Origin: Eubacteriales bacterium | GTDB lineage: Bacteria; Bacillota; Clostridia; Oscillospirales; CAG-272 | Reading direction: 5' to 3' | Assembly (NCBI GenBank): GCA_045637205.1 | Contig: JAZTYY010000082.1 | Location: forward strand, 8,822 to 72,821 | DNA length: 64,000 bases | Shown: positions 7,426 through 42,400 of the stretch, in pieces | Layout: each line of letters starts with the position of its first letter | Position numbering within the stretch: the first letter of the stretch is position 1 | Program-made: the position numbers and the translations under genes | Notes under the pieces: model-generated | The model's input: the letters and a program-made list of their open reading frames with translations, nothing else | What the model was told of the DNA's origin: nothing | Database searches by the model: none

Positions 7426-7442
7426 AGAAAGGATTGATTGTT

Positions 7443-8351: not shown

Positions 8352-8353
8352 AA

Positions 8354-23011: not shown

Positions 23012-23040
23012 TTGACATAATTGGCAAATGGTGGTATAAT
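23012..23040 (+). promoter_or_regulatory. Consensus sigma-A promoter of the TetR-SipW operon
   Basis: TTGACA (23012-23017), exactly 17 nt of spacer, then TGgTATAAT with TATAAT at 23035-23040. The region upstream is AT-rich. Confidence 0.8.
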
Positions 23041-23074: not shown

Positions 23075-23099
23075 CTCCACGTTGTGGAGCATATTTTTT
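23075..23099 (+). promoter_or_regulatory. Short hairpin plus U-tract in the operon leader (possible attenuator)
   Basis: CTCCAC-gtt-GTGGAG is followed by CATATTTTTT, about 30 nt downstream of the predicted transcription start. Confidence 0.35.
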
Positions 23100-23137
23100 C
23101 GGACGTTTGTAGTATTTGCTACAAGTTTATAGTATGC

Positions 23138-23167
23138 GTACAGTACAGTACAGTACAGTACAGTACA
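23138..23167 (+). repeat. Pentanucleotide tandem repeat (GTACA) x6 in the operon leader
   Basis: gtacagtacagtacagtacagtacagtaca is read directly. It lies between the promoter and the RBS of the TetR gene. Confidence 0.95.
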
Positions 23168-23206
23168 GCCGTATACAGAACTTATCTTTTGTTTAAGGAG
23201 GAAAAA

Positions 23207-23827
23207 ATGAAAAATGAACAAGAGATTCGAGAAGTTCTGATGAGTAATACTATAAGGCTTATTGCTGAGGGGGGCTTTGAAAAGGCAACCACAAAGGCAA
23301 TAACGCATAGTGGGGAATTACCATCCGATGTGAAAATGAATGAGGTGCACATTTACCGACTGTTTGGTAGCAAAGAGGGGCTTTACTCATTTGTGTTTGA
23401 TCACATTGACAGGGAGATATTCTTTGCTCTTAAAAGGTGCTTTGAGTCACACAAAAACGAAGAGTGTGACACAAAGGTAATGCTTAGCGGGGTCTTTAAT
23501 GACGCGTGGAGATATCTTTTAAGAAATGAGGGGCATTGTCGATGCTATATCCGATATTATCATTCGGTATATTTTAAGGACAAGTCCTTGAGTAATCATA
23601 ACGAACTTTTTGAAGGAATAATTACGGAATTCAGCCCACTGTTTAAAGAGGGCACGGATGTAAAATCCGTTATGCATAGCACGTTTACCACCGTGCTTGA
23701 CTTTGCCGTTAGAGTTTATAACGGTGACCTAAAAAATACTGAAACAAATGCTGAACACATATTCAACGTTGTTTATAGCATGATGTTTATGTATCTTAAA
23801 ACTGATAGTAATTTAAGAACTATATAA
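23207..23827 (+). CDS. TetR/AcrR-family transcriptional regulator
   Basis: The N-terminal HTH is VLMSNTIRLIAEGGFEKATTKAITHSG. I chose the ATG at 23207 (AAGGAGG RBS) over 23084, which would read through the repeat. Confidence 0.8.
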   Translation: MKNEQEIREVLMSNTIRLIAEGGFEKATTKAITHSGELPSDVKMNEVHIYRLFGSKEGLYSFVFDHIDREIFFALKRCFESHKNEECDTKVMLSGVFNDAWRYLLRNEGHCRCYIRYYHSVYFKDKSLSNHNELFEGIITEFSPLFKEGTDVKSVMHSTFTTVLDFAVRVYNGDLKNTETNAEHIFNVVYSMMFMYLKTDSNLRTI

Positions 23828-23846: not shown

Positions 23847-24521
23847 ATGAAAACCAACAATTCAACAAGCAAGACACAAAAGGCCTTAACAATAATTGGT
23901 ATCTTATTGTGCGTAATACTCGTACCGATATTGATTATTAACTGTATTTTGATTGTTAAGAGCTTAGTTTACAAGGATGAAGTGCCAAGCATCGGTGGAA
24001 CAATGCCATTCATCGTATTGACTGACTCCATGTATCCTGACATTAAGAGTGGTGACATTATTATTTGTAAAGAGGTTGACCCGAAGGATATTGAGGTAGG
24101 AGACGTTATCTCCTTCTATGATCCCGAAGGAAACGGAACTTCAGTTGTAACCCATAAGGTTATTAAAATCATTGAAGATGAAGGCAAGCTTTATTTCGTT
24201 ACACAAGGTACTAACAATAATACTCAGGATAAGGCATCAGTTCCTGAAGATAAGGTAATTGCCGAATACACAGGCACAAGAATTCCTTATGCAGGTAATA
24301 TTGCACTCTTTATGCAAAGACCTGAAGGACTTATCATTTGCGTTGGTGTACCGATTGTACTTTTCGTGGGATATGATATGATTCGTCGCAAGAAGTACGA
24401 AAAGAAGAAGGGTGACGATATGGAAGCCCTTAAGGCAGAGCTTGAAGCGCTTAAGGCAGCAAATGCCACAAAGGAAACACCTGCTGAAGCTCCTGCAGAA
24501 GAACCCTCAGCTGAGGAATAA
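23847..24521 (+). CDS. Signal peptidase I, ER/archaeal (SipW-like, S26B) type, paralog 1
   Basis: 224 aa. There is an N-terminal TM, a Ser box LTDSMYPDIKSGD and a His box VVTHKVIKI. A C-terminal TM is followed by a charged tail, KKKGDDMEALKAELEALKAANATKETPAEAPAEEPSAEE. The conserved GDxN box reads GTNN. Confidence 0.8.
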   Translation: MKTNNSTSKTQKALTIIGILLCVILVPILIINCILIVKSLVYKDEVPSIGGTMPFIVLTDSMYPDIKSGDIIICKEVDPKDIEVGDVISFYDPEGNGTSVVTHKVIKIIEDEGKLYFVTQGTNNNTQDKASVPEDKVIAEYTGTRIPYAGNIALFMQRPEGLIICVGVPIVLFVGYDMIRRKKYEKKKGDDMEALKAELEALKAANATKETPAEAPAEEPSAEE

Positions 24522-24728: not shown

Positions 24729-25385
24729 ATGAAGACAAACAAAATGATGAGAATCGCTTCCATTCTCTTGGTAGCAGTACTTCTTTCCATCTGTGTAATC
24801 AGTGGAACATTCGCAAAGTATACAACAAGTGTTAGCTCCGATGACTCTGCAAGAGTAGCTTACTGGGGATTCCAGAGAACAAACTCTATTGATATCACAG
24901 ATCTTTTTGATTCAGCTTATGATCTTGGCACAGGCGAAACAGTTAAGTCTGAAGATGGCGATGACGTAATCGCTCCCGGTACAACAGGTTCTGAAACTTT
25001 CGTATTCGCATATGATGAAACAAACGCACAGGCTCCCGAAGTAGCTTACACATTCACAGTATCTGTAGCTGGTAGTGAATGCGCTCAGTCCATCCAGGAC
25101 AACGCTAACATCCAGTGGAAGCTTGATAACGGCGCATGGGGAACATGGGAACAACTTTTGGATTCCATTAAGCTCCTCTCCGGTGAAGCTGATGGTTCTG
25201 TAGATTACATGCCTGGCCAGCTTCCTGCTGCTTTCACAACAGCTGATGACGAACACACAGTTTCTTGGCAGTGGCTTATCGGTGATTCCGATGCAGCAAA
25301 CGATGCTGACACAACTATGGGTAACGCAGGAACACTTGCTGAAGTTAAGCTCGTTATCACAATCACAGCAACTCAGATCGACTAA
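24729..25385 (+). CDS. SipW-substrate-type secreted protein; candidate major fibre subunit (TasA/BsaA/camelysin-like)
   Basis: 218 aa. The signal is MKTNKMMRIASILLVAVLLSICVISGTFAKYTTS, which resembles the GTxAyFtd SipW-cognate class. Further motifs are VIAPGTTGSETFVFAY and SWQW..D..MG..VKLVITITATQ. Codon choice resembles that of highly expressed genes, and a hairpin follows the gene. Confidence 0.65.
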   Translation: MKTNKMMRIASILLVAVLLSICVISGTFAKYTTSVSSDDSARVAYWGFQRTNSIDITDLFDSAYDLGTGETVKSEDGDDVIAPGTTGSETFVFAYDETNAQAPEVAYTFTVSVAGSECAQSIQDNANIQWKLDNGAWGTWEQLLDSIKLLSGEADGSVDYMPGQLPAAFTTADDEHTVSWQWLIGDSDAANDADTTMGNAGTLAEVKLVITITATQID

Positions 25386-25567: not shown

Positions 25568-26746
25568 ATGTCTAAAAACTCAAACACAGACTTAAAAACA
25601 ATATTCAATAAAATATGGGCAAAGACGAAGGATATCTCCAAAAAGGCATTTAACGGCTTTTTGCATGCTAAGACATTCTGGACTGCCTTTGCGATTTTGG
25701 TTATTCTTTTTATCATAAGCATCGTTGTTCTTTCAATTCAACTTTATGATTTCGTAAAGATTGATGACCGTTCTGTTTCTCTTCGTTCATCTATGGATGA
25801 AAGCCTTAACGTTTTCGCCATGGAATATGAGAACGATAGGGGAGAAATTACCATTAAGGGACAAAACGGTGAAAAGGTGATTGCACCCGGCACAAATGTT
25901 GAGTATACTCTTCGTTTTAGAAACACCGATGACATTGCACTTGATTATACCTTTGTTCCTGAGGTTTCATATACCTCAGAGCATAAGCTTCCCATCTTGG
26001 TTCGTTTGCTTGATCCCAACGATAAGTATATAATAGGTAACGAAACCACTTGGGTTCCCATTGATGAGGTTGATGAAGTTGAGCATAGTGCAACGCTTTT
26101 AGAAAACGAAACTGCTGAATACGTGTTCCAATGGAAGTGGCCATATGAATCCGGTGACGACGAGCATGATTCCTTTTTGGGTTCAGCCGAAGCAGGTGAC
26201 GTTAGTATAAATCTTGCGCTTGCCATTCATGCAACACCAAACACTGATGCTAAGGCCAACGGTGGATTCTTTGCATCTCCCATCGGCAAGCTTGTCGTTC
26301 TTATCATCATCGTTATCCTTCTTGCAATTGCAATTACACTCTTGTTGATTCATATTATCAATAAGAGAAGAGAAAAGAGGGGAGAAGCTCCCATTATTAT
26401 TGAGGTTCCCGTTGTTACACCCGTTATTGAGACAATTTCCCGCGTGATTACACCAAAGGCGGCAAAATATACCGCACAGGGTAAGGTTCATTACGTTAAC
26501 CTTGACCAGCTTGGAGATTTCTTCCACTCAGGTGATAGGGTTACTATTGAAAATCTCAAGCAAAAGGGACTTATTCCTAAAAATGCAAAGAGAATGAAGA
26601 TTTTGGCAAGAGACTCTTACACTCTCGATAAGGCACTCATAATTGAAACTCAAGCAATATCCGCTAATGCTAAAAAGGCAGTAATTGAGGCGGGTGGACG
26701 CGTTGTCATTGTTGATCCCAATGCAAAGGGAGATAAAAAACAGTGA
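25568..26746 (+). CDS. Bitopic/type-I membrane paralog of the fibre subunits with a cytoplasmic uL15 C-terminal-like domain
   Basis: 392 aa. The N-terminus is K-rich, and TM1 spans aa 36-56. The ectodomain carries the VIAPGTNVEYTLRFRN and FQWKW..DD..LG..INLALAIHATP paralog motifs. TM2 spans aa 241-263 and is followed by NKRREKR. The C-terminal domain is described in the next feature. Confidence 0.7.
   Translation: MSKNSNTDLKTIFNKIWAKTKDISKKAFNGFLHAKTFWTAFAILVILFIISIVVLSIQLYDFVKIDDRSVSLRSSMDESLNVFAMEYENDRGEITIKGQNGEKVIAPGTNVEYTLRFRNTDDIALDYTFVPEVSYTSEHKLPILVRLLDPNDKYIIGNETTWVPIDEVDEVEHSATLLENETAEYVFQWKWPYESGDDEHDSFLGSAEAGDVSINLALAIHATPNTDAKANGGFFASPIGKLVVLIIIVILLAIAITLLLIHIINKRREKRGEAPIIIEVPVVTPVIETISRVITPKAAKYTAQGKVHYVNLDQLGDFFHSGDRVTIENLKQKGLIPKNAKRMKILARDSYTLDKALIIETQAISANAKKAVIEAGGRVVIVDPNAKGDKKQ
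26483..26713 (+). other. uL15 (RplO) C-terminal-like domain within the membrane protein
   Basis: KVHYVNLDQLGDFFHSGDRVTIENLKQKGLIPKNAKRMKILARDSYTLDKALIIETQAISANAKKAVIEAGGRVVIV follows the bacterial uL15 C-terminal pattern VNLD.L..(V)T.E.L...G.I....KIL....L.K.L.....S..AK.A.E.AGG, as I recall it from memory. Confidence 0.7.
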
Positions 26747-27303
26747 AAAAGAAAATAAAATTAACCATAAGAATTGCGTTAATCGTGCTCGTGGCAGTCA
26801 TTGTGGGCGTTAATATTTATACACTTAACGCCGCAAGACTCACGGGGGATAAGGTTCCTATGCCGTTTGGCATCGGCTCGGCAGTTGTATTGTCTGGAAG
26901 CATGGAGCCCGAGCTCAGTGTTGGTGATCTTTTAATCATCGTTGAAAAAAGCACCTATGAGGTCGATGACGTTATCGTATATCAAGATTCCGGAATGGCG
27001 ATTACACATCGCATTGTTTCCATTAACGAGGATGAGGTCATTACTCGCGGTGATGCGAACAATACAAATGATTCTCCAATTCGTCCAAAGCAAATTAAGG
27101 GTGAGGTTGTGTTATCCATTCCTTACTTTGGCTACGTAGTTGATGCAATTAAGTCACCAATTGGTACAATTTGTATAATTGGACTTGCAATTTTCCTCTT
27201 GGAGCGCTCATTCCACGTGGAAAAGAAGAATGATAAAAAAGAGCTTGACGATATTAAAGCTGAAATTGAAAAATTAAAGCAAGAGCAAAGCAAAAATTCC
27301 TAA
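26743..27303 (+). CDS. Signal peptidase I, ER/archaeal (SipW-like, S26B) type, paralog 2
   Basis: 186 aa. It starts at a GTG that overlaps the upstream stop (GTGA). The Ser box is LSGSMEPELSVGD, the His box is AITHRIVSI and the Asp box is TRGDANNTNDSP. A C-terminal TM is followed by the tail KKELDDIKAEIEKLKQEQSKNS. Confidence 0.85.
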   Translation: MKKKIKLTIRIALIVLVAVIVGVNIYTLNAARLTGDKVPMPFGIGSAVVLSGSMEPELSVGDLLIIVEKSTYEVDDVIVYQDSGMAITHRIVSINEDEVITRGDANNTNDSPIRPKQIKGEVVLSIPYFGYVVDAIKSPIGTICIIGLAIFLLERSFHVEKKNDKKELDDIKAEIEKLKQEQSKNS

Positions 27304-27327
27304 AACACAGAAATGGAGGTGTTTTTT

Positions 27328-27789
27328 ATGCAACAAAAATATAATAAAACACCCCTTGTATTCAAGATAGGAGTAGGAATTCTTTTCGCTCTCTTGCTTA
27401 CTGTTTATTGTTCAAACGGTCTTTATGCAAGATATTCTACCACGCTAGTTAATTCGAATAGTGCTCGCGTGGCAGTATTCTCGTTTGATGATAATTTAGA
27501 TGCACAGTCAAAAATTCTTCCCGCGGCATTAAGCCCGGGGGAAAGTGAAAGTGCCTCCATAACTATTAAAAATAATGGTGAGGTTGCCTTGGCTTATAGC
27601 ATTAAGATTGAAAATCTTACTAACAATCTCCCCATTGCCGATCAAATAATCACATCCGATGCAATAGCACCCGGAACCGAAACCACGTTCAACTGGGCAC
27701 TTGAGTGGCCGGAAGAAGAAAATTCCATTGATTATATGGGAAAAATGGACGTGTTTAAGGTTACTGTTATTGTTGAACAGGTTGATTGA
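27328..27789 (+). CDS. Small SipW-substrate-type secreted protein (minor fibre subunit candidate)
   Basis: 153 aa from the ATG at 27328 (GGAGG RBS). The signal ends in SNGLYARYSTT. Further motifs are ALSPGESESASITIKNNG and FNWALEWP..D.MG..FKVTVIVEQ. Confidence 0.65.
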   Translation: MQQKYNKTPLVFKIGVGILFALLLTVYCSNGLYARYSTTLVNSNSARVAVFSFDDNLDAQSKILPAALSPGESESASITIKNNGEVALAYSIKIENLTNNLPIADQIITSDAIAPGTETTFNWALEWPEEENSIDYMGKMDVFKVTVIVEQVD

Positions 27790-27812
27790 TTTCGTTTGCG
27801 GAAAGGAATAAT

Positions 27813-28631
27813 ATGAAAAAAATACATATTTCAAAAAGGTTTTGGATTGGCGCCGGAATTGTGATTTTTTTGCTATCGGTTGTGCTGACAAGCAGTGTTC
27901 TTGCAAGATACGTCAAAACCTATGAGCCACAGGACGATTCAGTCACTGCAAAGGCATTTTATTTTGAAAGTAATTATCTTACTGAAGATAATCACGAGTA
28001 TAAGCTTAACCCGGGAACAACAAGCGTTGATTTTAAGCTTTCAAATTATGAAACTGAGGCGCGTGTTTCTGAGGTGGATTCAATATATACTATAACGGTG
28101 ACGTCAACTGACACATCGTTTACAATTGATGGTGAAGTTGTTACACAAAAAACACTTTTGGCCAATAAAAATGAAAAGACCGATAAGACTGTAACACTAG
28201 GTAATCTTAAGGATGGATACGGATATTCGGTAACTGTAACAGCCAACGGCGGTTACACAAAAACATTGTCAGCAACGTTTAGCGTTGTAAGTACAAAAAA
28301 CGGATTTTTCATGAACGTTAATAGCTTTAATGATAAGTTCGTAATTTTGACGGTTTGGACTGAGAACGTTTCAGGGGACGTGACTATTGAGGTTCCCGCA
28401 GGCTTAGTTCCTGACACAACCGAGCCACTTTTGGCAAATATCCAAAACTGCGTAAATGGTGAATACCAAGAATTTACGTTTAGTGATACTGAGCATTTCG
28501 ATGAAATATTCATGTCCTACAAATATAGATTCTTCAAGACTGAAGATTACGATCCCAATCAGGAATTTGTAGTAACAATGAATGGAAGAACTGCTGAGAT
28601 TAAATCAAATTTATCAAAAGGAGGGCAATAA
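27813..28631 (+). CDS. SipW-substrate-type secreted protein (272 aa, divergent paralog)
   Basis: I chose the ATG at 27813 (AAGGAA RBS). The signal ends in SSVLARYVKTY, and a LNPGTTSVDFKLSN motif is present. The C-terminal half has no obvious paralog. Confidence 0.6.
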   Translation: MKKIHISKRFWIGAGIVIFLLSVVLTSSVLARYVKTYEPQDDSVTAKAFYFESNYLTEDNHEYKLNPGTTSVDFKLSNYETEARVSEVDSIYTITVTSTDTSFTIDGEVVTQKTLLANKNEKTDKTVTLGNLKDGYGYSVTVTANGGYTKTLSATFSVVSTKNGFFMNVNSFNDKFVILTVWTENVSGDVTIEVPAGLVPDTTEPLLANIQNCVNGEYQEFTFSDTEHFDEIFMSYKYRFFKTEDYDPNQEFVVTMNGRTAEIKSNLSKGGQ

Positions 28632-28634
28632 TTA

Positions 28635-31600
28635 GTGAATGTTTCAAAAACAACAGATAAACGTCGATTGCTTTTGGGCTTAATCGGTATAGTATCTGTG
28701 ATGATTGTACTCATTTTTGCTTGTTGCTTTCCTGTTTTAGCTGCGAATACTGACGAAGATCACGTACAAATTGGTGATCAAGCTTATATTATTACTGATG
28801 CTAAATCTCTTGTAGATGCCGACTTGGCATTGCTTAGATGGAGATCAAAGGGTGATACTACAAGTGTTTCTGCTGTGATTGATGGCGAAAGCTTTTCGGG
28901 CTTTGATGCGGTTTATGCCAAAGTTTATGATAAACTTCTTGCGTTGTTCGATGATAAAAGTGATAGTTCGGTAGTATATTACGACATAGCTGCTGATAAT
29001 ACACCGTCATCTGACGGCTATATAGCAAACACGTTACCTACAGGTGAGACTAAAAACTCTACTGTTATTTGGAAAGTAACCGGTGAAGTTACTCTTAAAG
29101 CCGGCAAGCCGATTTCTAACGTTGGTAGAGTAATTATTATATCTGAGGATGCAGCAACAATAAAGATGACTGCTGAAGCTTCTCAATTTTTGGTGAAGGG
29201 AACTGCGTCTTTTGTTATTCAAGGAAGAAGTGTTAATCAAAATATAAAGGTTACTTCAACAAGTTCAACTAAGACCAAAAATTCATTTCAGGTAGATGGT
29301 GGAAGCTTATATTTACAGTATTGTGACCTTGATGGATTCAAATATTCAAGCACATCAGTTTCAGTAATTTGTTTCCCGACAGGCAACTATGCTAGATATT
29401 TGTATATGTCAGATTCAAAGCTGCGTAACATTAATGCCAGAGAAGCTCCCGGTATCTTTTGTAAGGCGTATAGTACAGGTAGTTCAAACGATAAAGTAAT
29501 CCAATCAAAATTGTACATCAACTATTCGGAATTTTCCAATTGTGTAACAAACAGTGGTGCTTCGGATACAGTCGGTGGGTCTGCTATTAGATCATACGCG
29601 GCTGACGTGTGTGATTTGACTGTAAGAAACTGTACATTTACAAGCAATCGTGTAGGTAGTAAAACTGCTGCTCAAACCGGTGTAGCTACCGGTGGTGGAG
29701 CAATTTATTGGAAATCCGTGGGTGGTAAGGCTACTTTGATTTCCTGTACTTTTAAAAATAACCATAGCTCAGTTGTAGGAGGAGCAATCCTTAACATGGG
29801 AACTATGGAGATTATAGGCTGTAATTTTGAAAATAATACAGCATTCCAAAGTGGTGGAGCAATTGCCGTTGAAACACCATATACTTCAAGTGAATATACA
29901 AGTATTACAGGTTCTACAAGTGAAAACAAGCAGAATAATTTGAGTGGTACTTTGACACTTGACTCCAATACAAAAATTATTGGAAATACGGCAAATCAGA
30001 TTGGTGGAGGCATTTATTTTAATGCGGTATCCAGCCAAATCAGTAGTAAATATCAAATAACAAAATATCAAATGCAGTTGATTATTAACGGTGCTGAAAT
30101 TACAGGCAACACCTCCGGCACAAACGGTGGTGGTGTAGGTATCTATATGAACTATGACGACCGTGAATATAAGACCGGTGTTATTATCAATGAGGGAAGC
30201 TTGATTGCTAATAACGTTGCTGCTCAAAACGGCGGTGCGATTTGGATAAATAGTGCTGAAGCGTGTGATTGTAAGGAAAATCAAGGTGTTGTCATGAATG
30301 GTGGTACACTTGAAAATAACCTGGCAATCAACGGTGGAGCAATCTATATTGACACTGGTAAAAACGGTGTTGAAATGAACTATTTTATAAACAGTGGTAA
30401 CGTATATAGAAATAGTGCAACATCAAATGGTGGTGCAGCCTATATTCAAGGCGGTAACGTTATTATGTCGGGTGGTATCATTGCAGATTGTACCGCGAAT
30501 GTAAACGGTGGTGCAGTATACGTTTCAGGTGGTGACGCTACCATATCAGGTGGTGAAATCAGTGACTGTGAGGCAGCTGAAGATGGAGGCGCATTCTATA
30601 TGACCGCCGGTTCAGTTACCTTGTCGGGAAATGCTGTTCTTAGTAGATGTACTGCAAAGAACGGCGGCGTAGTTTATATGGGTGGTGGTACCCTTAATAT
30701 GAATGGTGGTACACTTTCATCCAATACTGCTATCAATGGAGCAGGTGCTTATCTTGCAAACGGTACCATGACTATCTCAGGTGGTACAGTTATTGATAAC
30801 ATTGCATCACAAAACGGTGGTGCGGCTTACCTCGGTGGTGGTAATATGAACGTTACTGACGGCACTATTTCAACAAACGTTGCCGTAAATGGTGCGGGTG
30901 CATACCTTGCAAGTGGTACTTTGTCAGTTTCAGGTGGTAACATTATTAGCAATAATGGATCTCAAAATGGTGGTGGTGCATACCTTGCAGGTGGTACTAT
31001 GATATTCTCTGGTGGTACTGTTTCAACAAACATGGCAGTAAACGGAGCAGGAGCATACCTTGCAGGTGGTACAATGACCGTTTCGGGTGGTAATCTTACT
31101 TCAAACGTTGCATCTATGGATGGCGGTGGTGCTTATCTTGCAGGTGGATCGTTTACAATTACAAACGGTACAATTACGGGCAACACAGCGGTTAACGGTG
31201 CAGGCGCACTTGTTGCAAACGGTAACGTAAACGTTAGTGGTGGCTCGATTACACAAAACGTTGCCGCACAAAACGGTGGCGCGTTCTCAATCACTAATGG
31301 TAACTATACAATGATTGGTGGCTCAGTTACCCATAATATAGCAACCAACGGTGATGGTGGTGCAATTTATATTTCATCAACCCAGGATAATACAAATATT
31401 ATTATTCGCTCAGGCACGATTATTGATAACCAAGCGGGCAATAGTGGTGGTGCATTGGGTGTTTACGGTCAGGATGGAGTTAAATTTACCATTACAATTG
31501 GTTCAAATACAAATCATAAGGATAGAGATAATTGCCACGTTTGTGTGGATAATGCAAGTATAGACGAATCTTGTCCCGTTATTAAAAACAACTCCTCCGT

Positions 31601-34600
31601 CACAAGCGGTGGCGGTATATATCTTTCAGGTTCATATGATGCGGTAATGAATATGCACTGCCTTGTTGAAGAGAATAATACTGTTGGTGACGGTATTTCT
31701 AATAGTAACTTCATGAAGGTAGAGGGTGGTACACTCAATATCAATACTGAAGGTGCTAACAAGGAAGAAGACTGCGGTAACGTAGTTATTAATTCATCAA
31801 TTCACGTAACAGGCGGTAAGGTAACACTTCATGGAAGTGGCTCAAACCCGATGTTTAAGGAGCCTGTAACGGTTGATATTAATACTGAAGGCTCAAGCTT
31901 TACTGATGCTCGAGATGGCGGTAATGCAAGAACAATTCAGTACTTTGAAAACTTTGTAATCGGTGGCCAAATGTCAGGTCGATACGTTTTGATTGACTAC
32001 ATTAGCACTGATCCGCACATTGTTCGTGCAAATATGTATTCTAATACGGGTTATGAGGTTGACGGTTGGACTCTTATGACAACCGACGCAAATGGTAACC
32101 ACGTTTCAACTGGTAGAATATTTAAAGCGGGTGACGAGATTACTGACACAGGAAAGCTTATTTTCTATGCTAAATGGGTAGTTGTTGGTTACACGGTAAT
32201 ATTCGATCCGGGTGTGGATAGCTATAGGGGATCAATGGATCCTCAGGACTTTGCCTATAATGATAAAAAAGCACTTTTAGAAAATGCATTTATCAACGTG
32301 GGATATAAATTCTTGTATTGGGTGGATGCAAGTGATCCAACTAAGATCTATACTGACGGTCAGGTTGTTGAGGGCCTTTCACAAACTCACGGTTCAAAGA
32401 TTAATTTGATTGCCGTTTGGGAAATATGCACACATAACGATACGGAATATATACTTACCACAAGTGGAAGTATAGCTACTCGCCAATGTGAATGCTTAGG
32501 ATTTACCGAGATGGCATCTATTTCAGGTATCACTACTGTTTACGATGCTAATCCTCACGGAGTTAATGTAAACTATAATAGAGAGAGCTTGAATGGTCTT
32601 AACCCCGACGAGCTTTGGAGCTTTACCGTTCTTTATAATGGTACTTCAAACGGTGGAGAAACCTTGAGTGATTCCACCTTGGCACCGATCAATGCAGGCT
32701 CATATACTGCCGGCTTTGAGGTTGGTGAGGGTAAATCTATTTCCGTAAACATAATCATTAATAGAGCGAATAGAGAACAAGCTCCCAACTTGCCCGAGTA
32801 TACAACAGAGGTTGACAATAAGGGTACAAATAATCCTAATGATGATGTAAATATCATCAAAATTCAAACTCCAACGGACACAACGGGATATCCTCTTGAA
32901 TATCAGTTTTCTTGGTATGAGGGACAGTCACTTAAGCAAAGTAATTGGCAGTCCTGGAATGCTCAAAATCCTCCAACACAACAGTTGAAGGTAACTTACA
33001 CCAACTATTATGTTGACGTAAGATATGCTCAAACGGATAACTATAATGCATCAAGCATTGTTCGAGGAACGTCAGTTATCGTTTGGACGGGTAACGTAAC
33101 GTTTAAGTTTACTTCCGGACAAGGTCTTAGTCACTCACACGTAACATCCAATAATAAGGATGGTATTACAGTTACGTTGACTCCTTTGGAAGGATATTAT
33201 ATTTACAATATTGTCACCACAGTATCCGAAATTCCTGATTATACACTTCCTGTGATGGATGAAACCACAAAGACAAGTGATTCTTGGGTGATTTGGATTC
33301 ATAGTATTGCTGAAGCGCCCAAGGGAAGCGGAATTACAATTGAAATATTGTTTACAGGAGCTGAAAAAACAATCGACGTTGATTCTTCAACAGTTAAGGA
33401 CGAGGCATTTAATGATATTTCGTCAAGTGGGGAAGAAAACGTAACAATCAGCAGTGATTCTGCATTCACAGTTGCATTTAACGCAAGCAATTTCAAGCAT
33501 TACGTTAATCCTTCAATCACATTTAGCAGCGCAATTCCAAGTGGTAGTACTGTGATTATGATTGATAAATCTGATTATAGCTATTGGGGCTATACTGCAA
33601 CGGCCAACGTGACAAGCATACCCCTTACGGATTTTGTTAAGATGGGAACACAAAATGAAAAATTCTCAATTGACGGAAAGGAAGCGTATAACCTTCAGTT
33701 CGTTGTTGATTTTTCAAATTGTCAAAGTTATCCCACAGCAAACACTCTTGTTACATCTTTTGCTGCAACACCTGTTCAACCTTCGGGAATTACAACAGTA
33801 CCTGCAATGCCTTCATCTTCCGACGTGAAGAGTACAATTCAGTTTATGAGTACCCCCACTTTTAATATTGAAAGTGATGAAACAGCAACAGATTCAACGT
33901 CACATTCACTTGCTTATCAGTTTGCTGTGACGTCGGGAACTAACGTAGGCACTTCAAAATGGAACGATATAGGCGCTATGCTTCTTGTTGTTCCTGAGGA
34001 TGCATCAATTCTTCCCAAGGATGCAAGATTGCAGGTTAAGATTGGCGATTCAACTGAAATTTATCCTTTGATTAACGGTAAATTCACAGTTGCCCTGCCT
34101 TCTAATAACACGGGAGTTGCATCACTTACCTTGTTGTCAGATATGATGCCTAATGAAGATATATCCTTTATGTTTACCGTTCAGCTTTGCGCATCAGCAA
34201 CCAAGGTTCAAAACACTCCTAATGGAGAGGAGCTTAACGTTGCAGACATCACTATTAGCTATAGTGTGAAGAAGACTGATGATCCTGAAATTTTTGCACA
34301 AATCAATGGTGATCTTCCCAAGTATGAAAACGGAAATATAACTCCATTGTATTTTGCAGTATCGGTTGAAAATCTTCCTCAAAATTATACGGTAAGAGCA
34401 ATGCTATATAGCAAAAACGCTAACGGTGGATATACTTCCACAACTCAAACAATGAATTTACCCCTTGTGGATAATTCGTTTGAGGGGGTTATTGACCTTG
34501 TATCCTTTAAAGAGGAAATGAGCCAAGCTGTTGGAAGTCTTAGCCTTATGGTTAGCATTGAAATTGTTGACTTGAACGGCGCAGTTGTTGAGTCCGTTCC

Positions 34601-34634
34601 ATTGTATTTTATTTTGGTAGATGCAAGACAATAG
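28635..34634 (+). CDS. Giant secreted beta-helix adhesin-like protein (Pmp-type GGA(I/A)Y repeats plus Listeria-Bacteroides (Flg_new) repeats)
   Basis: 1999 aa, starting at a GTG 3 nt after the upstream stop. The N-terminal signal or anchor is LLLGLIGIVSVMIVLIFACCFPVLAAN. Aa ~300-1065 hold ~23-aa rungs such as NGGAAYL.GG.M.VSGGT...N. Aa ~1138-1263 hold two GY.(V/F).(G/Y)W...(Y/I)A.W repeats. The ~730-aa C-terminal region is uncharacterised, and I saw no LPXTG. Confidence 0.75.
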   Translation: MNVSKTTDKRRLLLGLIGIVSVMIVLIFACCFPVLAANTDEDHVQIGDQAYIITDAKSLVDADLALLRWRSKGDTTSVSAVIDGESFSGFDAVYAKVYDKLLALFDDKSDSSVVYYDIAADNTPSSDGYIANTLPTGETKNSTVIWKVTGEVTLKAGKPISNVGRVIIISEDAATIKMTAEASQFLVKGTASFVIQGRSVNQNIKVTSTSSTKTKNSFQVDGGSLYLQYCDLDGFKYSSTSVSVICFPTGNYARYLYMSDSKLRNINAREAPGIFCKAYSTGSSNDKVIQSKLYINYSEFSNCVTNSGASDTVGGSAIRSYAADVCDLTVRNCTFTSNRVGSKTAAQTGVATGGGAIYWKSVGGKATLISCTFKNNHSSVVGGAILNMGTMEIIGCNFENNTAFQSGGAIAVETPYTSSEYTSITGSTSENKQNNLSGTLTLDSNTKIIGNTANQIGGGIYFNAVSSQISSKYQITKYQMQLIINGAEITGNTSGTNGGGVGIYMNYDDREYKTGVIINEGSLIANNVAAQNGGAIWINSAEACDCKENQGVVMNGGTLENNLAINGGAIYIDTGKNGVEMNYFINSGNVYRNSATSNGGAAYIQGGNVIMSGGIIADCTANVNGGAVYVSGGDATISGGEISDCEAAEDGGAFYMTAGSVTLSGNAVLSRCTAKNGGVVYMGGGTLNMNGGTLSSNTAINGAGAYLANGTMTISGGTVIDNIASQNGGAAYLGGGNMNVTDGTISTNVAVNGAGAYLASGTLSVSGGNIISNNGSQNGGGAYLAGGTMIFSGGTVSTNMAVNGAGAYLAGGTMTVSGGNLTSNVASMDGGGAYLAGGSFTITNGTITGNTAVNGAGALVANGNVNVSGGSITQNVAAQNGGAFSITNGNYTMIGGSVTHNIATNGDGGAIYISSTQDNTNIIIRSGTIIDNQAGNSGGALGVYGQDGVKFTITIGSNTNHKDRDNCHVCVDNASIDESCPVIKNNSSVTSGGGIYLSGSYDAVMNMHCLVEENNTVGDGISNSNFMKVEGGTLNINTEGANKEEDCGNVVINSSIHVTGGKVTLHGSGSNPMFKEPVTVDINTEGSSFTDARDGGNARTIQYFENFVIGGQMSGRYVLIDYISTDPHIVRANMYSNTGYEVDGWTLMTTDANGNHVSTGRIFKAGDEITDTGKLIFYAKWVVVGYTVIFDPGVDSYRGSMDPQDFAYNDKKALLENAFINVGYKFLYWVDASDPTKIYTDGQVVEGLSQTHGSKINLIAVWEICTHNDTEYILTTSGSIATRQCECLGFTEMASISGITTVYDANPHGVNVNYNRESLNGLNPDELWSFTVLYNGTSNGGETLSDSTLAPINAGSYTAGFEVGEGKSISVNIIINRANREQAPNLPEYTTEVDNKGTNNPNDDVNIIKIQTPTDTTGYPLEYQFSWYEGQSLKQSNWQSWNAQNPPTQQLKVTYTNYYVDVRYAQTDNYNASSIVRGTSVIVWTGNVTFKFTSGQGLSHSHVTSNNKDGITVTLTPLEGYYIYNIVTTVSEIPDYTLPVMDETTKTSDSWVIWIHSIAEAPKGSGITIEILFTGAEKTIDVDSSTVKDEAFNDISSSGEENVTISSDSAFTVAFNASNFKHYVNPSITFSSAIPSGSTVIMIDKSDYSYWGYTATANVTSIPLTDFVKMGTQNEKFSIDGKEAYNLQFVVDFSNCQSYPTANTLVTSFAATPVQPSGITTVPAMPSSSDVKSTIQFMSTPTFNIESDETATDSTSHSLAYQFAVTSGTNVGTSKWNDIGAMLLVVPEDASILPKDARLQVKIGDSTEIYPLINGKFTVALPSNNTGVASLTLLSDMMPNEDISFMFTVQLCASATKVQNTPNGEELNVADITISYSVKKTDDPEIFAQINGDLPKYENGNITPLYFAVSVENLPQNYTVRAMLYSKNANGGYTSTTQTMNLPLVDNSFEGVIDLVSFKEEMSQAVGSLSLMVSIEIVDLNGAVVESVPLYFILVDARQ

Positions 34635-34641: not shown

Positions 34642-34678
34642 AAATGCCCATTCACCGAAAGGTGAATGGGCATTTTTA
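34642..34678 (+). terminator. Strong rho-independent terminator ending the operon
   Basis: AATGCCCATTCACC-gaaa-GGTGAATGGGCATT is followed by TTT. Confidence 0.9.
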
Positions 34679-36458: not shown

Positions 36459-39400
36459 ATGATGAAAATCTCATTGAAATTAATCATTATTGCTTTGTGT
36501 AGTATTGCTGTGATTACCACGGCAACTATAATAATAGTTAATACGCTTGACAAGGGGGAAACTCCAAACGACGAGCCACATGTTCATGTGTTCGCAGATT
36601 GGACGCAGACTAAAGCACCCACTTGCCAAGCAAAGGGCGAAGACACTCGCACATGTACTTGTGGTGCTAAGGAAACAAGAGAAGTAGCAATTAATTCTAA
36701 TGCCCACATATTTAACCAAAGAGTTGTAGATGACAAATATATAAAATCTGAAGCAAACTACGATGATCCAGCATACTATTATTATTCTTGCGTATGTGGT
36801 GAAAAGGGAACTGAAAGCTTCCCGGAAGGCGAAGCAATACTTCCTCCCGTATCGTCAGTAACTTTAGATAAAAATGCTGCAACCATAAATCTTGGTGATA
36901 GCTTAACACTTGTTGCAACTATAACTCCCGGCAATGCTATTGATCAGGAGTTAACTTGGACAAGCTCCGATTTGTCAATAGCAAAGGTTACAAATGGAGT
37001 AGTGACAAGTTTGAAATCCGGAACAGTGACTATAACGGCATCAACAGCCAACGGAAAGAGCGCAAGCTGTACGGTAACGATTGAAAGTAATTACGTTATT
37101 AAATATGAATTGACAGAAGATTCTAGCTTTTATGTTGTAACCGGTATTGAGGGCAGAACAAACGTTCTTGAAATTCCGTTCTTGCATGACGGTCTTCGTG
37201 TAGTTGCTATCAAAGAAGGCGCATTCCAAAACAATTTGGATTTGGAGCAGCTTATTCTTCCCAACTCTATAGAATACATTTATAAAAATGCATTTGAAAA
37301 CTGCTCGAATTTGACAAGTGTTAATCTTCCTGACAGTTTGTTATTTATCGGTCAATCTGCATTTGAAGAATGTACATCATTGAAGGAAGTTCACATTCCT
37401 TATCTTGTTCATACTGTTGATACAAGGGCATTTTATCATTGTGTAGCCCTTGAGAACGTAACCGTTGCGGATGAAAAGGAACCAATGAACAAAAAGATAG
37501 GTTCTTATGCTTTCTCACAGTGTGAAAATCTTAAGACAGTTGTTGTTGGCGAAGGTATGGAGATCTTAGGTGATAACTCCTTCTCATACTGTACCTCGAT
37601 GGTAAGCTTTACTGTGGGAAATGGGCTTAAAACTATTTCCAATATGGCATTTGATAATTGCTTGTCATTGCTTAGATTTGATATGCCGGATACGGTAACT
37701 TATCTTGGAAATATGGCATTCCGTCACGCCGAAGCACTTAAAGAGGTAACCTTCTCGACAAATTTGAATGCTATTGGAAACGCGTGCTTCCAATATTGCA
37801 TTTCGCTTGATAACGTTGAGCTTCATGATGGCATTAGCCAAATCGGTGCATCCGGATTCAGCTTTTGTTCGGGTATGAAGACTCTTAAAATTCTTGGAAA
37901 TATAACGTCACTTGGTAGTTCGGCGTTCTATGAATGTACCGGGCTTACCGAAATCTATTATGCCTCCTCAATTAAGGGGGATCTCGGCCTTAACAACTAT
38001 ATATTCTATAATGCCGGCACAAAGGGAGATGGAATAGTACTTACTCTTGGACCCAATGCTTGCATTCGTGATAGACTTTTTGAACCGCAGGAGGATAAAA
38101 ACCGTCCTAAGTTGGTTAAAATTATAGTTGAAAATGAAGCAACTGAGGTTGATTATTTAGAAAACTATAATACCTTACCATACCTTACTGAAATTGAGCT
38201 TCCTGACAGTATCGTTGAAATTAAAAGTGGTATATTCCACAATACTGCATGGTGGAATGCTCAGCCCGAAGGTGCGGTATATATTGGAAATATCCTTTAT
38301 GGTTACAAGGGTGAGCTTAATGGTGAACTTACTATTTCCGATAACACGGTATGCATTGCCTTTGGTGCGCTTACCGGACAAAATCCCACATCTTTGAGAA
38401 TTCCTTTTGTTGGTGCAATACAAAATGGAACTGTAAACACTCATTTAGGTTATATTTTTGGTGCGGATTCACCCATTGATCAAAATGCAGCTTGTGTACC
38501 GCAATCACTGAACACTGTTGTAATAACAGGCGGAACCGATATACCGGCAAATGCATTCTATGATTGCGCATCTCTTACAAGCATAGAAATTCCAAGCAGT
38601 GTAACAAAAATTGGAGAATATGCATTTTATGGTTGCACAGGTCTTACAAGTATGGAGATACCAAAGAGTGTAACAAGTATTGGTAGTGGTGCATTTTGTA
38701 ATTGTACAGGTCTTACGAGCATAGAAATACCCAAGGATGTAACAAGCATTGGCGATGAAGCATTTATTGGTTGCAACAAACTAGAGAGCATTACGTTGCC
38801 ATTCGTAGGTAACGGTTCAGATAAAACTAATTTCGGTTATATTTTTGGCGCAGATTCATATCAGGATCAAGCCGACTATATTCCTGAAAGCTTGATATTG
38901 GTAACCGTTACGCGTTGCGAAAATCCTATTGACGAGCACGCTTTTGATAATTGTAATTTTGAAGTATTTATCGTTCATGATTTTGAAGAATGGATAGTAT
39001 CTCTCGCTCCCACGTGTCAGACAACGGGTAGCAAATATCACGTTTGCTCAATATGTGAGTACCGAGAAGATGAGATCATACCTATTGATCCCGACGCGCA
39101 CAAAAAAGACAGTGCTTGGAGCACGGATGAAAACAATCACTGGCACAAATGTCTCATTGAAGGATGCGATGAGAAGTTGGATCATATAGAGCACGATTGG
39201 GAACAATGGGTAATTACTCTCGATCCCACGTGTCAGACAACAGGTAGCAAATATCACGTTTGCTCAATATGTGAGTACCGAGAAGATGAGATCATACCCA
39301 TTGATCCCGACGCGCACAAAAAAGACAGTGAGTGGAGCACGGATGAAAACAATCACTGGTATGAATGTCATGTTGAAGGATGCGATGTCAAAGTAGATTT

Positions 39401-42400
39401 GGCATCACATACCTGGAATAGTGAAAATACTTGTATTTATTGTGATGAATATAAGGATCGAGGAGTTATATTTACATTCAATAGTGAATCATCCACATAT
39501 TCAATTACTGATTATACCGGTTCAGCCACCTCTGTAATTATTCCTTCAACATATAAGGGATATCCTGTGACTCAAATATCCAATAGCGCATTTGAGAATT
39601 GTACATCTATCACAAGCATAGAAATTCCAAGCAGTATAAAGAGCATTGGTTATAGTGTATTTTCTGGTTGCACAGGTCTTACCGGTGTAAATATAACAGA
39701 TATTGCCGCTTGGTGTAATATAGATTTTTACAATAGTGATGCTAATCCGCTATATTATGCTAAAAATCTTTACTTAAACGGTGAGCTTGTTACTGATCTT
39801 GTTATTCCCGAGGGTGTAACAAGCATTGGTGATTGTGCATTTATAAACTGCACATCTTTTGAAAGTGTAGAGATACCAAGCAGTGTAGCAAGCATTAGCG
39901 CTAGATCATTTGAGGGTTGTACAAATCTTACAACCATAGAAATATCAAACGGTGTTAAAAGTATTGATAATCGCGCATTTTATGGTTGCACAAATCTTGC
40001 AGGCATAGAAATACCAAGCAGTGTAATAAGTGTTGGAGAATATGCATTTGCAAATTGTACATCCCTTGAAAGTGTAAAAATATTGGATGGAGTAAAGAGC
40101 ATTGGAAGATCCGCATTTTTGCGTTGCACAGGTCTTACAAGCATAGAAATACCAAGCAGTGTAACAAGCATTGGATCAGGTGCATTCTATGATAGCACAG
40201 GACTTACCGACGTATATATATCTGATATTGCCGCGTGGTGTAATATAGATTTTGGTAATGAAACTGCCAATCCGCTATATTATGCTGAAAATCTTTACTT
40301 GAACGATGAGTTGGTTACTGAACTTGTTATTCCCGAGGGTGTGACAAGTATTGATAGCAATGCTTTTTATGGTTTCACAGGCATCACAAGTGTAGAGATC
40401 CCCAGCAGTGTAGAAAGCATTGGAAGTGATGTGTTCTATAACTGCGCAAATCTTACCGATATATATATATCTGATATTGCCGCGTGGTGTAATATAGATT
40501 TTAGCAACTATGCCGCAAATCCTTTATATGTTGCTAAAAATCTTTACTTGAATGATGAGTTGGTTACTGAACTTGTTATTCCCGAGGGTGTAACAAGTAT
40601 TAATAACTATGCATTTAAAGGTTGTTCAGGGCTTACAAGTATAGAGATCCCAAGTAGTGTAACAAGCATTGGCGATTCTGCATTTTCCGGTTGTTCAGGG
40701 CTTACAAGCATTGAGATCCCAAGTAGTGTAACAAGCATTGGAGATTATGCATTTTCCGGTTGTTCAGGGATTACAAGTATAGAAATACCAAAAAGTGTAG
40801 AAAGCATTGGTTATTGCGCATTTTATAGTTGCTACAAGCTTGAGAGCATTACCTTGCCTCTCGTTGGCAATGGATCAACCTCTACCCATTTTGGATATAT
40901 TTTTGGTGCAGATACATACGATAAAAATAACAATTTTATACCCTCGTCGCTTGAAACTGTTATAGTAATTGGCGACAGTGTGCCTTCACATGCATTCTAT
41001 GGTTGCTGGAATATTAGAAGTATAGAAATGCAAGATGATATAACAAGCATCGGTGATAGTGCATTTTCCGGATGTGAGAATCTATATAATGTCAAAATAC
41101 CAAACACAGTACAAAGCATTGGTGATGCTGCATTTTGGGATTGTCTCAGTCTTACAAGGATAAAGATTCCAAACGGTGTAACAAGCATTGGAGGATATGT
41201 ATTTGCTGGCTGTTCAAGACTTGCAACTATAGAAATTCCAAGCAGCGTCACGAGCATTGGAAATAATGCGTTTATTGGTTGCACAGGTCTTACCGGTGTA
41301 TATATAACCGATCTTGCCGCGTGGTGTAATATAGACTTTAACACATCTTGGGAAGCTAATCCCTTATACCGTGCTAATAATCTTTACTTGAACGGTGAGC
41401 TCGTTACTGATCTTGTAATTCCCGAGGGTGTAACAAGTATTGGAGATTGTGCATTCATTGGTTGCACATCTTTAGAAAGTGTAGAAATCCCAAGTAGTGT
41501 AACAAGCATTGGTTATTCTGCATTTTATGGTTGCAACAAACTCGAGAGCATTACAGTACCATTTGTAGGTAATGGTTCGGATGAAAGTCATTTCGGTTAT
41601 ATCTTCGGTGCGGAGACGTATAAAGATAATGCAACTTATGTACCCGTATCGCTGAAAACTGTTGTAATAACAGGCGGAACAGAAATAGCACAATATGCGT
41701 TCTACGATTGCTCTAATATTACAAGCATAGTAATACCAAGCAGTGTAACAAGTATTGGACAAAATGCATTCTATAAATGTACAGGTATTATCGACGTATA
41801 TATAAGCGATCTTGCTACGTGGTGTAATATAGATTTTTACGATAGTGGTGCTAATCCGCTATATGAAGCTAATAATCTTTACTTAAACGGTGAGCTTGTT
41901 ACTGATCTTGTTGTTCCCGAGGGTGTAACAAAAATTGGTTCTTGTACCTTTATTGGATATACACGCCTTAAAAGTGTAGTAATACCCAACGGCGTAACAA
42001 GTATTGAACATGGTGCATTTTTTGGCTGCACAAATCTTTCAAGCATAAATATTCCAAGCAGTGTAACAAAGATTGCTGAGCAGGCGTTCTTATATTGCAC
42101 AAATCTTAGCAAAGTATATATAACCGATCTTAAAGCGTGGTGTAATATAGATTGTGAATCTCCTCTTTTTAATCCTACTTCGGGAAAGCTTTATTTAAAC
42201 GGTGAGCTTGTTACTGATCTTGTTATTCCCGAGGGTGTAACAAAAATTGGAGAACATGCATTTTTTGGTTGCTCAAGTCTTACAAGCATAGTAATACCAA
42301 GCAGTGTAACAAGCATTGATTATGCTGCATTTTGGAATTGTACAGGTCTTACGAGCATAGAAATCCCAAGCAGTGTAACAAGCATTTCCAGTGGCGCATT

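Follow-up and report, generated by a model that had tools for sequence, protein, structure and literature searches.

A predicted two-pass membrane protein encoded in a surface-protein operon of a gut Clostridia bacterium ends, on the predicted cytoplasmic side, in a genuine copy of the globular half of ribosomal protein uL15. The same tail is found on hundreds of unrelated membrane and giant surface proteins. In the literature that we could search, we found no description of the fusion or of the module.

RESULTS

The C terminus of the membrane protein is homologous to uL15

We analyzed a window of 64,000 nucleotides from the Eubacteriales bacterium assembly GCA_045637205.1 (contig JAZTYY010000082.1, positions 8,822 to 72,821). 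The initial annotation pointed to an open reading frame (ORF) at 25568-26746 and noted that its residues 306-382, which follow a second transmembrane (TM) helix and the stretch NKRREKR, resemble the C-terminal half of bacterial uL15. This observation was confirmed. The ORF is open and encodes the 392-aa protein, and both hydrophobic helices and the NKRREKR stretch are present (Table 1).

To test the domain assignment, we compared the protein with curated profiles. Pfam PF00828 (Ribosomal_L27A) matched residues 310-380 over profile positions 2-72 of 72, with an E value of 8.7e-13 and 48.9 bits against a gathering cut-off of 21.5. The NCBIfam equivalog profile TIGR01071 (rplO_bact) matched residues 302-379, but only at profile positions 68-143 of 144, and the score of 41.1 bits was below the equivalog cut-off of 77.95. 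In a phmmer search of the PDB, only uL15 chains were found (best E value 2e-6), and a family profile reached 8.6e-13. Next, we modeled the domain with AlphaFold2 (pLDDT 85.5) and searched with the model using Foldseek. The top 18 hits were uL15 chains, and the best superposition was obtained with 7nhn_O (TMq 0.71, rmsd 1.9 Å over 80 columns, probability 1.0). This similarity is far beyond chance.

The protein is not the ribosomal protein itself. The Gly/Arg/Lys-rich N-terminal extension of uL15 that enters the rRNA core (GRG..GSG.GKT, PKRGF) is absent, and residues 1-305 are instead a cytoplasmic helix, TM1, the ectodomain, TM2, and the linker. In addition, the gene is not located in a ribosomal spc operon (rpmD-rplO-secY), since its neighbors encode signal peptidases and secreted proteins. 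Neither a canonical rplO nor a second copy of the domain was found in the window.

Predicted topology and conservation of the segments

We then derived the topology from hydrophobicity, the positive-inside rule, and the AlphaFold model. Together they give the following layout: N terminus inside, TM1, β-sandwich outside, TM2, NKRREKR, a disordered linker, and the uL15-like domain inside. The net charge before TM1 is +6. In 96% of the family members, K+R after the last TM exceeds K+R before it, and a positive-inside bias was also seen in 88% of 84 other TM-bearing carriers of the domain. In the model, the domain spans residues 307-381 and is held about 45 residues from the membrane.

The target has 69 homolog clusters, 45 of which contain PF00828. 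Mean pairwise identity in the family is 55% for TM1, which is the most conserved segment, 53% for the ectodomain, 51% for the uL15-like domain, 39% for TM2, and 29% for the linker, which also varies in length. Thus, where the tail is present, it is as conserved as the ectodomain, and we take this as purifying selection on the tail.

Table 1. Features of the gene and its operon (window coordinates; all on the + strand)
Position	Feature	Supporting data
23012..23040	Consensus sigma-70-type promoter (TTGACA-17-TATAAT with TG) at the head of the operon	Pattern match only
23084..23827	TetR-family regulator	PF00440, E 4e-5
23847..24521	SipW/archaeal-type signal peptidase I, copy 1, with two TMs and a cytoplasmic coiled-coil acidic tail	TIGR02228, 109.2 bits (cut-off 51.85)
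24729..25385	Secreted 218-aa β-sandwich protein with a GTFA-KY signal-peptide end; closest paralog of the target's ectodomain	602 unannotated relatives
25568..26746	Whole gene: 392-aa two-TM membrane protein with a C-terminal uL15-like domain	Conserved operon position in loci L001-L004, L059, and L060 of relatives
25568..25675	aa 1-36: basic cytoplasmic N terminus, predicted amphipathic helix, with one copy of a repeat (V/I)W..TK.ISKK that occurs 1-3 times in orthologs	Charge count; helix 6-31 in the model; alignment
25676..25756	aa 37-63: TM1, probably an uncleaved signal-anchor	Kyte-Doolittle peak at aa 39-57; helix 35-63 in the model
25757..26287	aa 64-240: predicted extracellular β-sandwich domain with the APG and W.W...D..LG motifs	Strands 69-224 in the model (pLDDT about 90)
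26288..26356	aa 241-263: TM2 (stop-transfer anchor)	Kyte-Doolittle 3.67 at aa 243-261; helix 238-271 in the model
26357..26482	aa 264-305: NKRREKR, then a Pro/Val/Glu-rich disordered cytoplasmic linker	pLDDT below 50 at aa 279-302
26483..26713	aa 306-382: domain homologous to the C-terminal globular domain of uL15 (PF00828)	Profile, PDB, and fold searches (see text)
26714..26746	aa 383-392: short basic tail and stop codon; the stop overlaps the GTG start of the next gene (GTGA)	
26743..27303	SipW/archaeal-type signal peptidase I, copy 2, translationally coupled to the target	TIGR02228, 87.4 bits (cut-off 51.85); start-stop overlap
27313..27789	Secreted 158-aa paralog	Weak CARDB and Peptidase_M73 hits; BLASTP E 0.015 to the target
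27786..28631	Secreted 281-aa protein with a similar signal-peptide end (LARY)	
28635..34634	Secreted 1999-aa repeat protein with a signal peptide and no membrane anchor	Orthologs of 1805-1976 aa follow in every related operon
34642..34675	Intrinsic-terminator-like hairpin (15 pairs) closing the operon	

The ectodomain is a paralog of the neighboring secreted proteins

The initial annotation also stated that the segment between the TM helices shares motifs with secreted paralogs, and this was found to be correct. BLASTP of the target against the adjacent 218-aa ORF gave an E value of 7e-7. In an alignment of the target family with the two secreted neighbors (alignment A3), the P-G of APG and W129, W131, and D141 (positions in the ectodomain segment of this alignment) are invariant. 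Apart from the two signal peptidases, the target is the only product of the eight-gene operon with a C-terminal membrane anchor. Both peptidases score above the TIGR02228 cut-off but below the Bacillus SipW equivalog cut-off. The operon is conserved in relatives at 41-57% identity.

We tested whether the ectodomain is fiber-subunit-like in the sense of TasA, as had been proposed, and this could not be shown. The target gave no hit to PF12389 (Peptidase_M73), the 158-aa neighbor gave only a weak one (E value 0.077), and none of 60 paralog-family members matched this profile. NCBIfam also gave no support. Family profiles (A3 and a further one, A4) found no PDB sequence at E ≤ 10. Foldseek returned only generic β-sandwiches, and TasA was not among the top 50 hits.

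Next, we asked whether SipW-type cleavage of TM1 would yield a type I anchored protein, as the initial annotation inferred. The secreted paralog family has an invariant A-K-Y after its hydrophobic core. In contrast, at the aligned position the target family has Y/H/V/A/F followed by D-Y, in the context (S/A)(I/V)RL.DY. Together with the unusually high conservation of TM1, this makes an uncleaved two-TM hairpin more likely, although cleavage at S56 cannot be excluded.

The uL15-like domain is a mobile C-terminal module

A word-indexed homolog search with the C-terminal domain alone found nothing. In contrast, an exhaustive profile search found 930 cluster representatives at E ≤ 1e-10. Of the 138 non-uL15 proteins among the best 150, 93% have the domain within 15 residues of the C terminus, and 37 consist of signal peptide, ectodomain, TM, and domain, with lengths of up to 3078 aa. 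Other carriers are N-terminally anchored proteins without an ectodomain, an ECF transporter S-component, YjbR-repeat proteins, and soluble proteins. The layout of TM, short linker, uL15-like domain, and end recurs on many unrelated proteins of gut Clostridia, including giant signal-peptide proteins. Pfam, NCBIfam, and PDB searches of the carriers detected only YjbR and an ECF S-component as further domains, and everything else was unannotated. The gene of one YjbR and uL15-like protein (P0210) starts 20 bp after a gene for a 4877-aa surface protein.

We also compared the non-ribosomal copies with canonical uL15. The median net charge of 191 non-ribosomal copies is +4 and their median pI is 9.4, like the pI of 9.4 in the canonical-like copies. 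Signature positions (K.L, L.K, S..A, AGG) are shared by the consensus sequences of the target family, the other carriers, and canonical uL15. However, the non-ribosomal copies are closer to each other (37-45% identity) than to canonical uL15 (29-30%), and they share extra motifs such as NIDTL, LKEKGL.P, and KILAR.

The tail is not needed at this operon position. Orthologs with 45-60% identity, encoded in the same operon (P0043, P0062, P0037, P0049, and P0055-P0068), have only a short or acidic tail. The domain is therefore an accessory and not special to this operon, whereas the initial annotation treated it as an unexpected component of a fiber operon. An Rfam scan of 23-35 kb of the window, performed to find a structured RNA that might be a target of the domain, detected nothing. 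Phage origin was not supported by any hit. The single plasmid hit lies in an 11.85-Mb Nonomuraea record, which is chromosome-sized and has no annotated feature under the match, and was presumed to be the organism's own rplO.

DISCUSSION

The interpretation given in the initial annotation is only partly supported. Homology of the tail to uL15, its cytoplasmic location by the positive-inside rule, and the paralogy of the ectodomain with the secreted neighbor are supported. The type I anchoring after cleavage and the TasA-like nature of the ectodomain are not supported, and the suggested binding to rRNA or ribosomes remains a hypothesis.

We regard as demonstrated by the sequence and model analyses the two-pass architecture with both ends in the cytoplasm, the extracellular β-sandwich paralogous to the small secreted proteins, and the true homology of the last 77 structured residues to the globular domain of uL15. 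Our confidence in this architecture is high. By inference only, the protein is the membrane base of the extracellular assembly made by the operon (a role that rests on context alone), it probably keeps both TM helices, and the tail is an accessory cytoplasmic module, because orthologous operons work without it. Binding by the tail and any function in export are hypothetical. The mechanism that we tentatively favor is that the domain binds RNA or ribosomal particles and so would hold translation of the long operon mRNA, or the mRNA itself, close to the membrane site where its products are exported. The conserved signature residues, the basic charge, and the repeated linkage, in cis or by adjacency, to very large secreted proteins speak for this. 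However, the signature residues may be needed only for folding, and a basic pI is weak evidence for nucleic acid binding. Binding at the canonical site is unlikely, because in mature ribosomes this site is occupied and the tail lacks the extension that carries most of the rRNA contacts of uL15. Being located at the very C terminus, the domain cannot assist co-translational targeting of its own chain, and its absence from close orthologs shows that it is dispensable for the core function.

An equally possible explanation is that the uL15 fold was reused purely for protein-protein interaction, oligomerization, or clustering, or as a fast-folding cytoplasmic stopper. The domain would then gather or orient membrane proteins on the cytoplasmic face without any relation to RNA or ribosomes. 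The very different partners are typical of a generic adaptor, the module is dispensable in orthologous operons, the canonical ribosomal site is not free, and the motifs shared among the non-ribosomal copies are consistent with a new, shared binding function. Against this reading, the domain keeps the charge and signature positions of the canonical domain, no partner is predicted, and no other domain of known function travels with it.

A more far-reaching reading, which we consider unlikely but not excluded, is that the tail is a bacterial receptor for ribosomes, large subunits, or rRNA. Membrane proteins carrying it, together with soluble YjbR-uL15-like partners encoded next to giant adhesin genes, would hold polysomes on very long mRNAs at the membrane, so that huge surface proteins are made and exported on the spot. 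This would be a prokaryotic counterpart of ribosome docking at the rough ER, built from a piece of a ribosomal protein.

It is very unlikely that the tail is a signaling output, released by regulated intramembrane proteolysis when the ectodomain senses assembly or load, and then acting on translation or on an RNA. The flexible linker after a TM resembles tethered regulators, and the operon encodes a TetR regulator and two peptidases. However, no site-2 protease is encoded in the operon, SipW-type enzymes cleave on the outer face and not within or after TM2, and the soluble and N-terminally anchored carriers have nothing to sense outside. Similarly unlikely is an alternative uL15 that is taken up by ribosomes, making them membrane-bound and specialized. 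The homology to uL15 and the NCBI name of one ortholog ("uL15 family ribosomal protein") speak for this, and Escherichia coli is reported to tolerate loss of L15 (Dabbs' mutant collection and later systematic deletions), so ribosomes without uL15 can work, but the score below the equivalog cut-off, the missing extension, the genomic context, and the orthologs without the domain argue against it. An artifact (chance similarity, chimeric assembly, or gene-calling fusion) is excluded although all relatives come from metagenome assemblies, since the profile and fold matches are strong, the reading frame is continuous, the domain is conserved while the linker drifts, and the fusion is present in more than 40 protein clusters and at least 15 independent loci from different samples.

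The operon resembles the SipW-TasA/TapA system of Bacillus subtilis, the SipW-BsaA system of Clostridium perfringens, and archaeal AbpA-type systems, in which an ER/archaeal-type signal peptidase acts with secreted β-sandwich subunits that polymerize by donor-strand exchange (PMC9674648, PMC10151520, PMC9245690). Here too, such peptidases are encoded next to several small secreted β-sandwich paralogs, and a conserved N-terminal strand follows the signal peptides. Their GTFA-KY end resembles the GT(W/F)A-(A/F)F end of TasA/CalY. Two peptidases, a two-TM membrane-embedded paralog, a roughly 2000-aa secreted partner, and a cytoplasmic uL15-like tail have, to our knowledge, not been described for TasA systems. 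The operon is an unannotated, conserved system with two SipW-type peptidases, three secreted β-sandwich proteins, a membrane-embedded paralog, and a roughly 2000-aa secreted protein, and is likely to build a surface structure in uncultured Oscillospiraceae-like bacteria.

Precedents for tethering ribosomes to the bacterial membrane are the C-tail-anchored YqjD, ElaB, and YgaM of E. coli and the C-terminal tails of YidC/Oxa1. Like the target, they combine a membrane anchor with a basic cytoplasmic part that, in the target, could reach ribosomes. They use unstructured or helical basic regions, have no sequence or fold relationship to the domain described here, and are considered only as a functional analogy. 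Domains first known from ribosomal proteins also occur as modules in non-ribosomal multidomain proteins, as is the case for S4, S1, KOW, and L7Ae domains. In the literature that we could search, we found no description of such reuse for the L15/L18e fold, which here is mostly tethered to membranes at the extreme C terminus and is carried by hundreds of protein clusters in gut and rumen Clostridia. If the domain binds ribosomes or RNA, it would give a direct handle on how bacteria couple translation to the export of very large surface proteins.

The module also has a practical consequence. PF00828 is used as a single-copy marker for L15 when metagenomic genomes are counted or quality-checked (PMC10102025), and one ortholog of the target is already named "uL15 family ribosomal protein" by NCBI. 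In these lineages, such hits are neither ribosomal proteins nor single-copy.

Identity and predicted topology of the uL15-like domain

The target ORF is open and encodes a 392-aa protein whose C-terminal domain reads exactly as described in the initial annotation. The observation was confirmed. To test the proposed relationship to ribosomal protein uL15, we searched the protein against Pfam. PF00828 (Ribosomal_L27A, the L15/L18e/L27A family) matched aa 310-380 over essentially the whole model (positions 2-72 of 72), with an E-value of 8.7e-13 and a score of 48.9 bits against a gathering cut-off of 21.5. In contrast, the bacterial rplO equivalog model TIGR01071 matched aa 302-379 only to the C-terminal half of the profile (positions 68-143 of 144), and its score of 41.1 bits was below the cut-off of 77.95. 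When the last 103 residues were used in a phmmer search of PDB, essentially only uL15 chains were returned (best E 2e-6), and a profile of 39 family members improved this to 8.6e-13. An AlphaFold2 model of the domain was built on 23 family sequences (mean pLDDT 85.5). Its top Foldseek hits in PDB were uL15 chains of bacterial and chloroplast ribosomes, with the best superposition on 7nhn_O (TMq 0.71, rmsd 1.9 Å over 80 columns, probability 1.0). Thus, the resemblance is homology and not chance.

Next, we analyzed the architecture of the whole protein. Kyte-Doolittle scans revealed two strong hydrophobic helices. The 36 residues preceding the first carry a net charge of +6, and the second is followed by NKRREKR. 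The full-length model (39 sequences, pLDDT 80) contained a well-predicted β-sandwich between the two TM helices and a disordered stretch (pLDDT < 50) before the uL15-like domain (see the table). K+R after the last TM exceeded K+R before it in 96% of 48 family members, and the reverse was never found. Both termini are therefore predicted to be cytoplasmic and the β-sandwich to be outside, as had been proposed. The N-terminus of the family also contains one to three copies of an 11-residue repeat, (V/I)W..TK.ISKK, the copy number differing between orthologs.

Coordinates of the target protein, its predicted elements, and neighboring features
Feature	Nucleotides	Residues	Strand
Target ORF (392 aa)	25568-26746		+
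N-terminus with 11-residue repeat	25568-25675		
Predicted cytoplasmic helix (model)		6-31	
TM helix 1 (model)		35-63	
Hydrophobic helix 1 (Kyte-Doolittle)		39-57	
β-Sandwich (model)		69-224	
TM helix 2 (model)		238-271	
Hydrophobic helix 2 (Kyte-Doolittle)		243-261	
Disordered stretch (model)		279-302	
uL15-like domain	26483-26713	306-382	
uL15-like domain (model)		307-381	
Consensus promoter (predicted)	23012-23040		
SipW/archaeal-type signal peptidase, first	23847-24521		
Secreted 218-aa protein	24729-25385		
SipW/archaeal-type signal peptidase, second	26743-27303		
Terminator (predicted)	34642-34675		
Secreted 3086-aa leucine-rich repeat protein	36459-45719		
T-box leader	47550-47773		
914-aa ORF	47745-50489		
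tRNA cluster	57606-57866		-

TM1 is probably not removed by SipW

The initial annotation had inferred that SipW cleavage would yield a type-I anchored protein. To examine this, we compared TM1 with the signal peptide of the adjacent secreted 218-aa protein, which belongs to a family of at least 602 unannotated relatives. In that family, the hydrophobic core is followed by an invariant A-K-Y and then RVA.WGF. In the pairwise alignment, LSIQLYDF of the target lies opposite ISGTFAKY, and across 39 orthologs the position opposite the A is Y/H/V/A/F. A conserved S/A at position 56 leaves some room for cleavage. TM1 is the most conserved segment of the whole protein, with 55% mean pairwise identity, compared to 39% for TM2 and 21.5% for the N-terminal region. 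The simpler reading is an uncleaved signal-anchor, that is, a two-TM hairpin rather than a type-I protein.

The ectodomain and its operon

The ectodomain is related to the 218-aa neighbor (BLASTP E 7e-7) and, more weakly, to a 158-aa neighbor (E 0.015). P-G of APG, two tryptophans and an aspartate are invariant across the family and both neighbors. The relatives of the 218-aa protein, which are about 200-240 aa long, share invariant A-K-Y, R-V-A, A-P-G, W.W and D-T..G-N motifs and have no Pfam, NCBIfam or PDB relative. We also tested whether the ectodomain belongs to the TasA/camelysin family, and membership could not be shown. The target gave no Peptidase_M73 hit, the 158-aa protein gave only E 0.077, and none of 60 members of the paralog family hit this profile. 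Profiles of the ectodomain and of the paralog family found nothing in PDB even at E ≤ 10, and Foldseek returned only generic β-sandwiches (GOLD domain, CBMs, furin P domain).

The genomic setting is solid. A consensus promoter and a strong terminator, both predicted from sequence, bracket eight co-oriented genes. These are a TetR regulator, a SipW/archaeal-type signal peptidase (TIGR02228, 109 bits), the secreted 218-aa protein, the target, a second peptidase (87 bits), secreted 158-aa and 281-aa proteins, and a secreted 1999-aa repeat protein. Each of the two peptidases has a second TM and a cytoplasmic coiled-coil-like charged tail, and the second is translationally coupled to the target, its GTG start overlapping the stop codon of the target (GTGA). 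Apart from the peptidases, the target is the only product with a C-terminal membrane anchor. The same gene order recurs around orthologs at 41-57% identity in independent metagenomes, and relatives come from Oscillospiraceae, "Eubacteriales" and Clostridia MAGs of animal and human guts.

The tail is a widespread mobile module

The main new result came from a profile search with an alignment of the tail against 1.84 billion cluster representatives, which gave 4306 hits at E ≤ 1e-3 and 930 at E ≤ 1e-10. Of the best 150, only about 9 have a uL15-type N-terminus. In the other 138, the domain ends within 15 residues of the C-terminus in 93%. Among these 138 proteins, 37 have a signal peptide or N-terminal TM, a large ectodomain, a TM and then the domain; examples are 1592, 2197, 2405, 2421 and 3078 aa long, with TM-to-domain spacings of about 35-65 residues, similar to the 45 residues of the target. 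A further 23 have a single N-terminal TM followed by a long acidic/proline linker and the domain, 24 have other TM arrangements, and 54 have no TM, although many of the latter are short and may be fragments. The positive-inside bias again places the domain in the cytoplasm in 88% of 84 TM-bearing carriers.

The partner domains are almost all unannotated, the exceptions being an ECF-transporter S-component and YjbR-like repeats. One large class (related proteins P0129, P0130, P0144, P0176, P0183, P0203 and P0208) has an N-terminal TM, an acidic/proline-rich linker, one or two copies of a domain of about 150 aa (YNRSF.AKLIQ ... GR...AKL..RGKTL.L.LAL), an acidic helix (TVEEA...MTDEEA) and then the uL15-like domain. 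No Pfam, NCBIfam or PDB match exists for the middle domain. One soluble YjbR + uL15-like protein (P0210; loci L056 and L057 of the relatives, positions 1-8753) is encoded 20 bp downstream of a gene for a 4877-aa surface protein (Flg_new, MBG_2), and another related protein, P0116, has five YjbR-like repeats before the same tail.

Non-ribosomal copies are more similar to each other than to canonical-like copies (family to others 37%, others to others 45%, either to canonical 29-30%), and they share the extra motifs NIDTL, LKEKGL.P and KILAR. This is consistent with one recruitment followed by domain shuffling. Related proteins P0087, P0088, P0089, P0095, P0096, P0097, P0101 and P0108 have a canonical uL15 N-terminus (GRG..GSG.GKT) and carry two or three tandem copies of the C-terminal globular domain, suggesting that the ribosomal protein itself has apparently duplicated this domain in some lineages.

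Possible function of the tail

The tail is under purifying selection: its mean pairwise identity of 51% is the same as that of the ectodomain (53%) and far above that of the linker (29%). It is basic like the canonical domain, with a median net charge of +4 and a pI of 9.4 in 191 copies, and it keeps the positions conserved in canonical uL15 (K.L, L.K, S..A and AGG). Nevertheless, it is dispensable. The orthologs P0043 (60% identical over the ectodomain) and P0062 sit in the same operon with only a short tail, and other orthologs carry acidic low-complexity tails. The tail also lacks the N-terminal extension of uL15. In mature ribosomes the uL15 site is filled, and a C-terminal domain cannot help to target its own nascent chain.

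We therefore treat two readings as roughly equally likely, each of them tentative. The tail may be an RNA/ribosome-binding tether that keeps translation of long secretory operons at the membrane, or it may be a reused fold serving as a protein-binding or clustering module. Regulated release and an "alternative uL15" are minor possibilities, and an artefact is excluded by recurrence in more than 40 clusters and at least 15 loci.

Taken together, the interpretation in the initial annotation was supported only in part. The identity of the domain, its predicted cytoplasmic location and the paralogy of the ectodomain with the secreted neighbors hold, whereas SipW cleavage and a TasA-like fibre identity were not supported. 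Our sequence and model comparisons establish the homology to uL15, the paralogy and the recurrence of the module, while the role of the target as the membrane base of an extracellular assembly is a reasonable inference from operon context, and any binding of RNA or ribosomes by the tail, and thus coupling to translation, remains a hypothesis. The finding is also more general than first proposed, since the uL15 globular domain has been recruited as a C-terminal, predicted cytoplasmic module of many membrane and giant surface proteins in gut Clostridia. Reuse of ribosomal-protein domains and SipW-type secretion operons are both known, but full-text literature searches on uL15-like and L15-like domains, on PF00828 (Ribosomal_L27A) and the "uL15 family" annotation, on uL15 together with SipW, and on SipW in gut Clostridia found no paper describing the fusion or the module.

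These proteins also have consequences for annotation. NCBI annotates one ortholog as "uL15 family ribosomal protein," which is misleading. PF00828 serves as a single-copy L15 marker in metagenomics (PMC10102025). The non-ribosomal carriers found here score above its gathering threshold, would count as extra "L15" genes in Clostridia bins, and would distort such counts.

Other features of the region

Just downstream of the operon lies a gene for a secreted 3086-aa protein made almost entirely of BspA-type leucine-rich repeats (PF13306, 23 stretches) with a Big_2 domain. Further along, a T-box leader (Rfam RF00230, 124.8 bits) was detected, the 3' end of which overlaps the listed start of the 914-aa ORF. 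The region also contains a cluster of tRNA-His(GTG), tRNA-Arg(TCT) and tRNA-Gly(TCC) genes.
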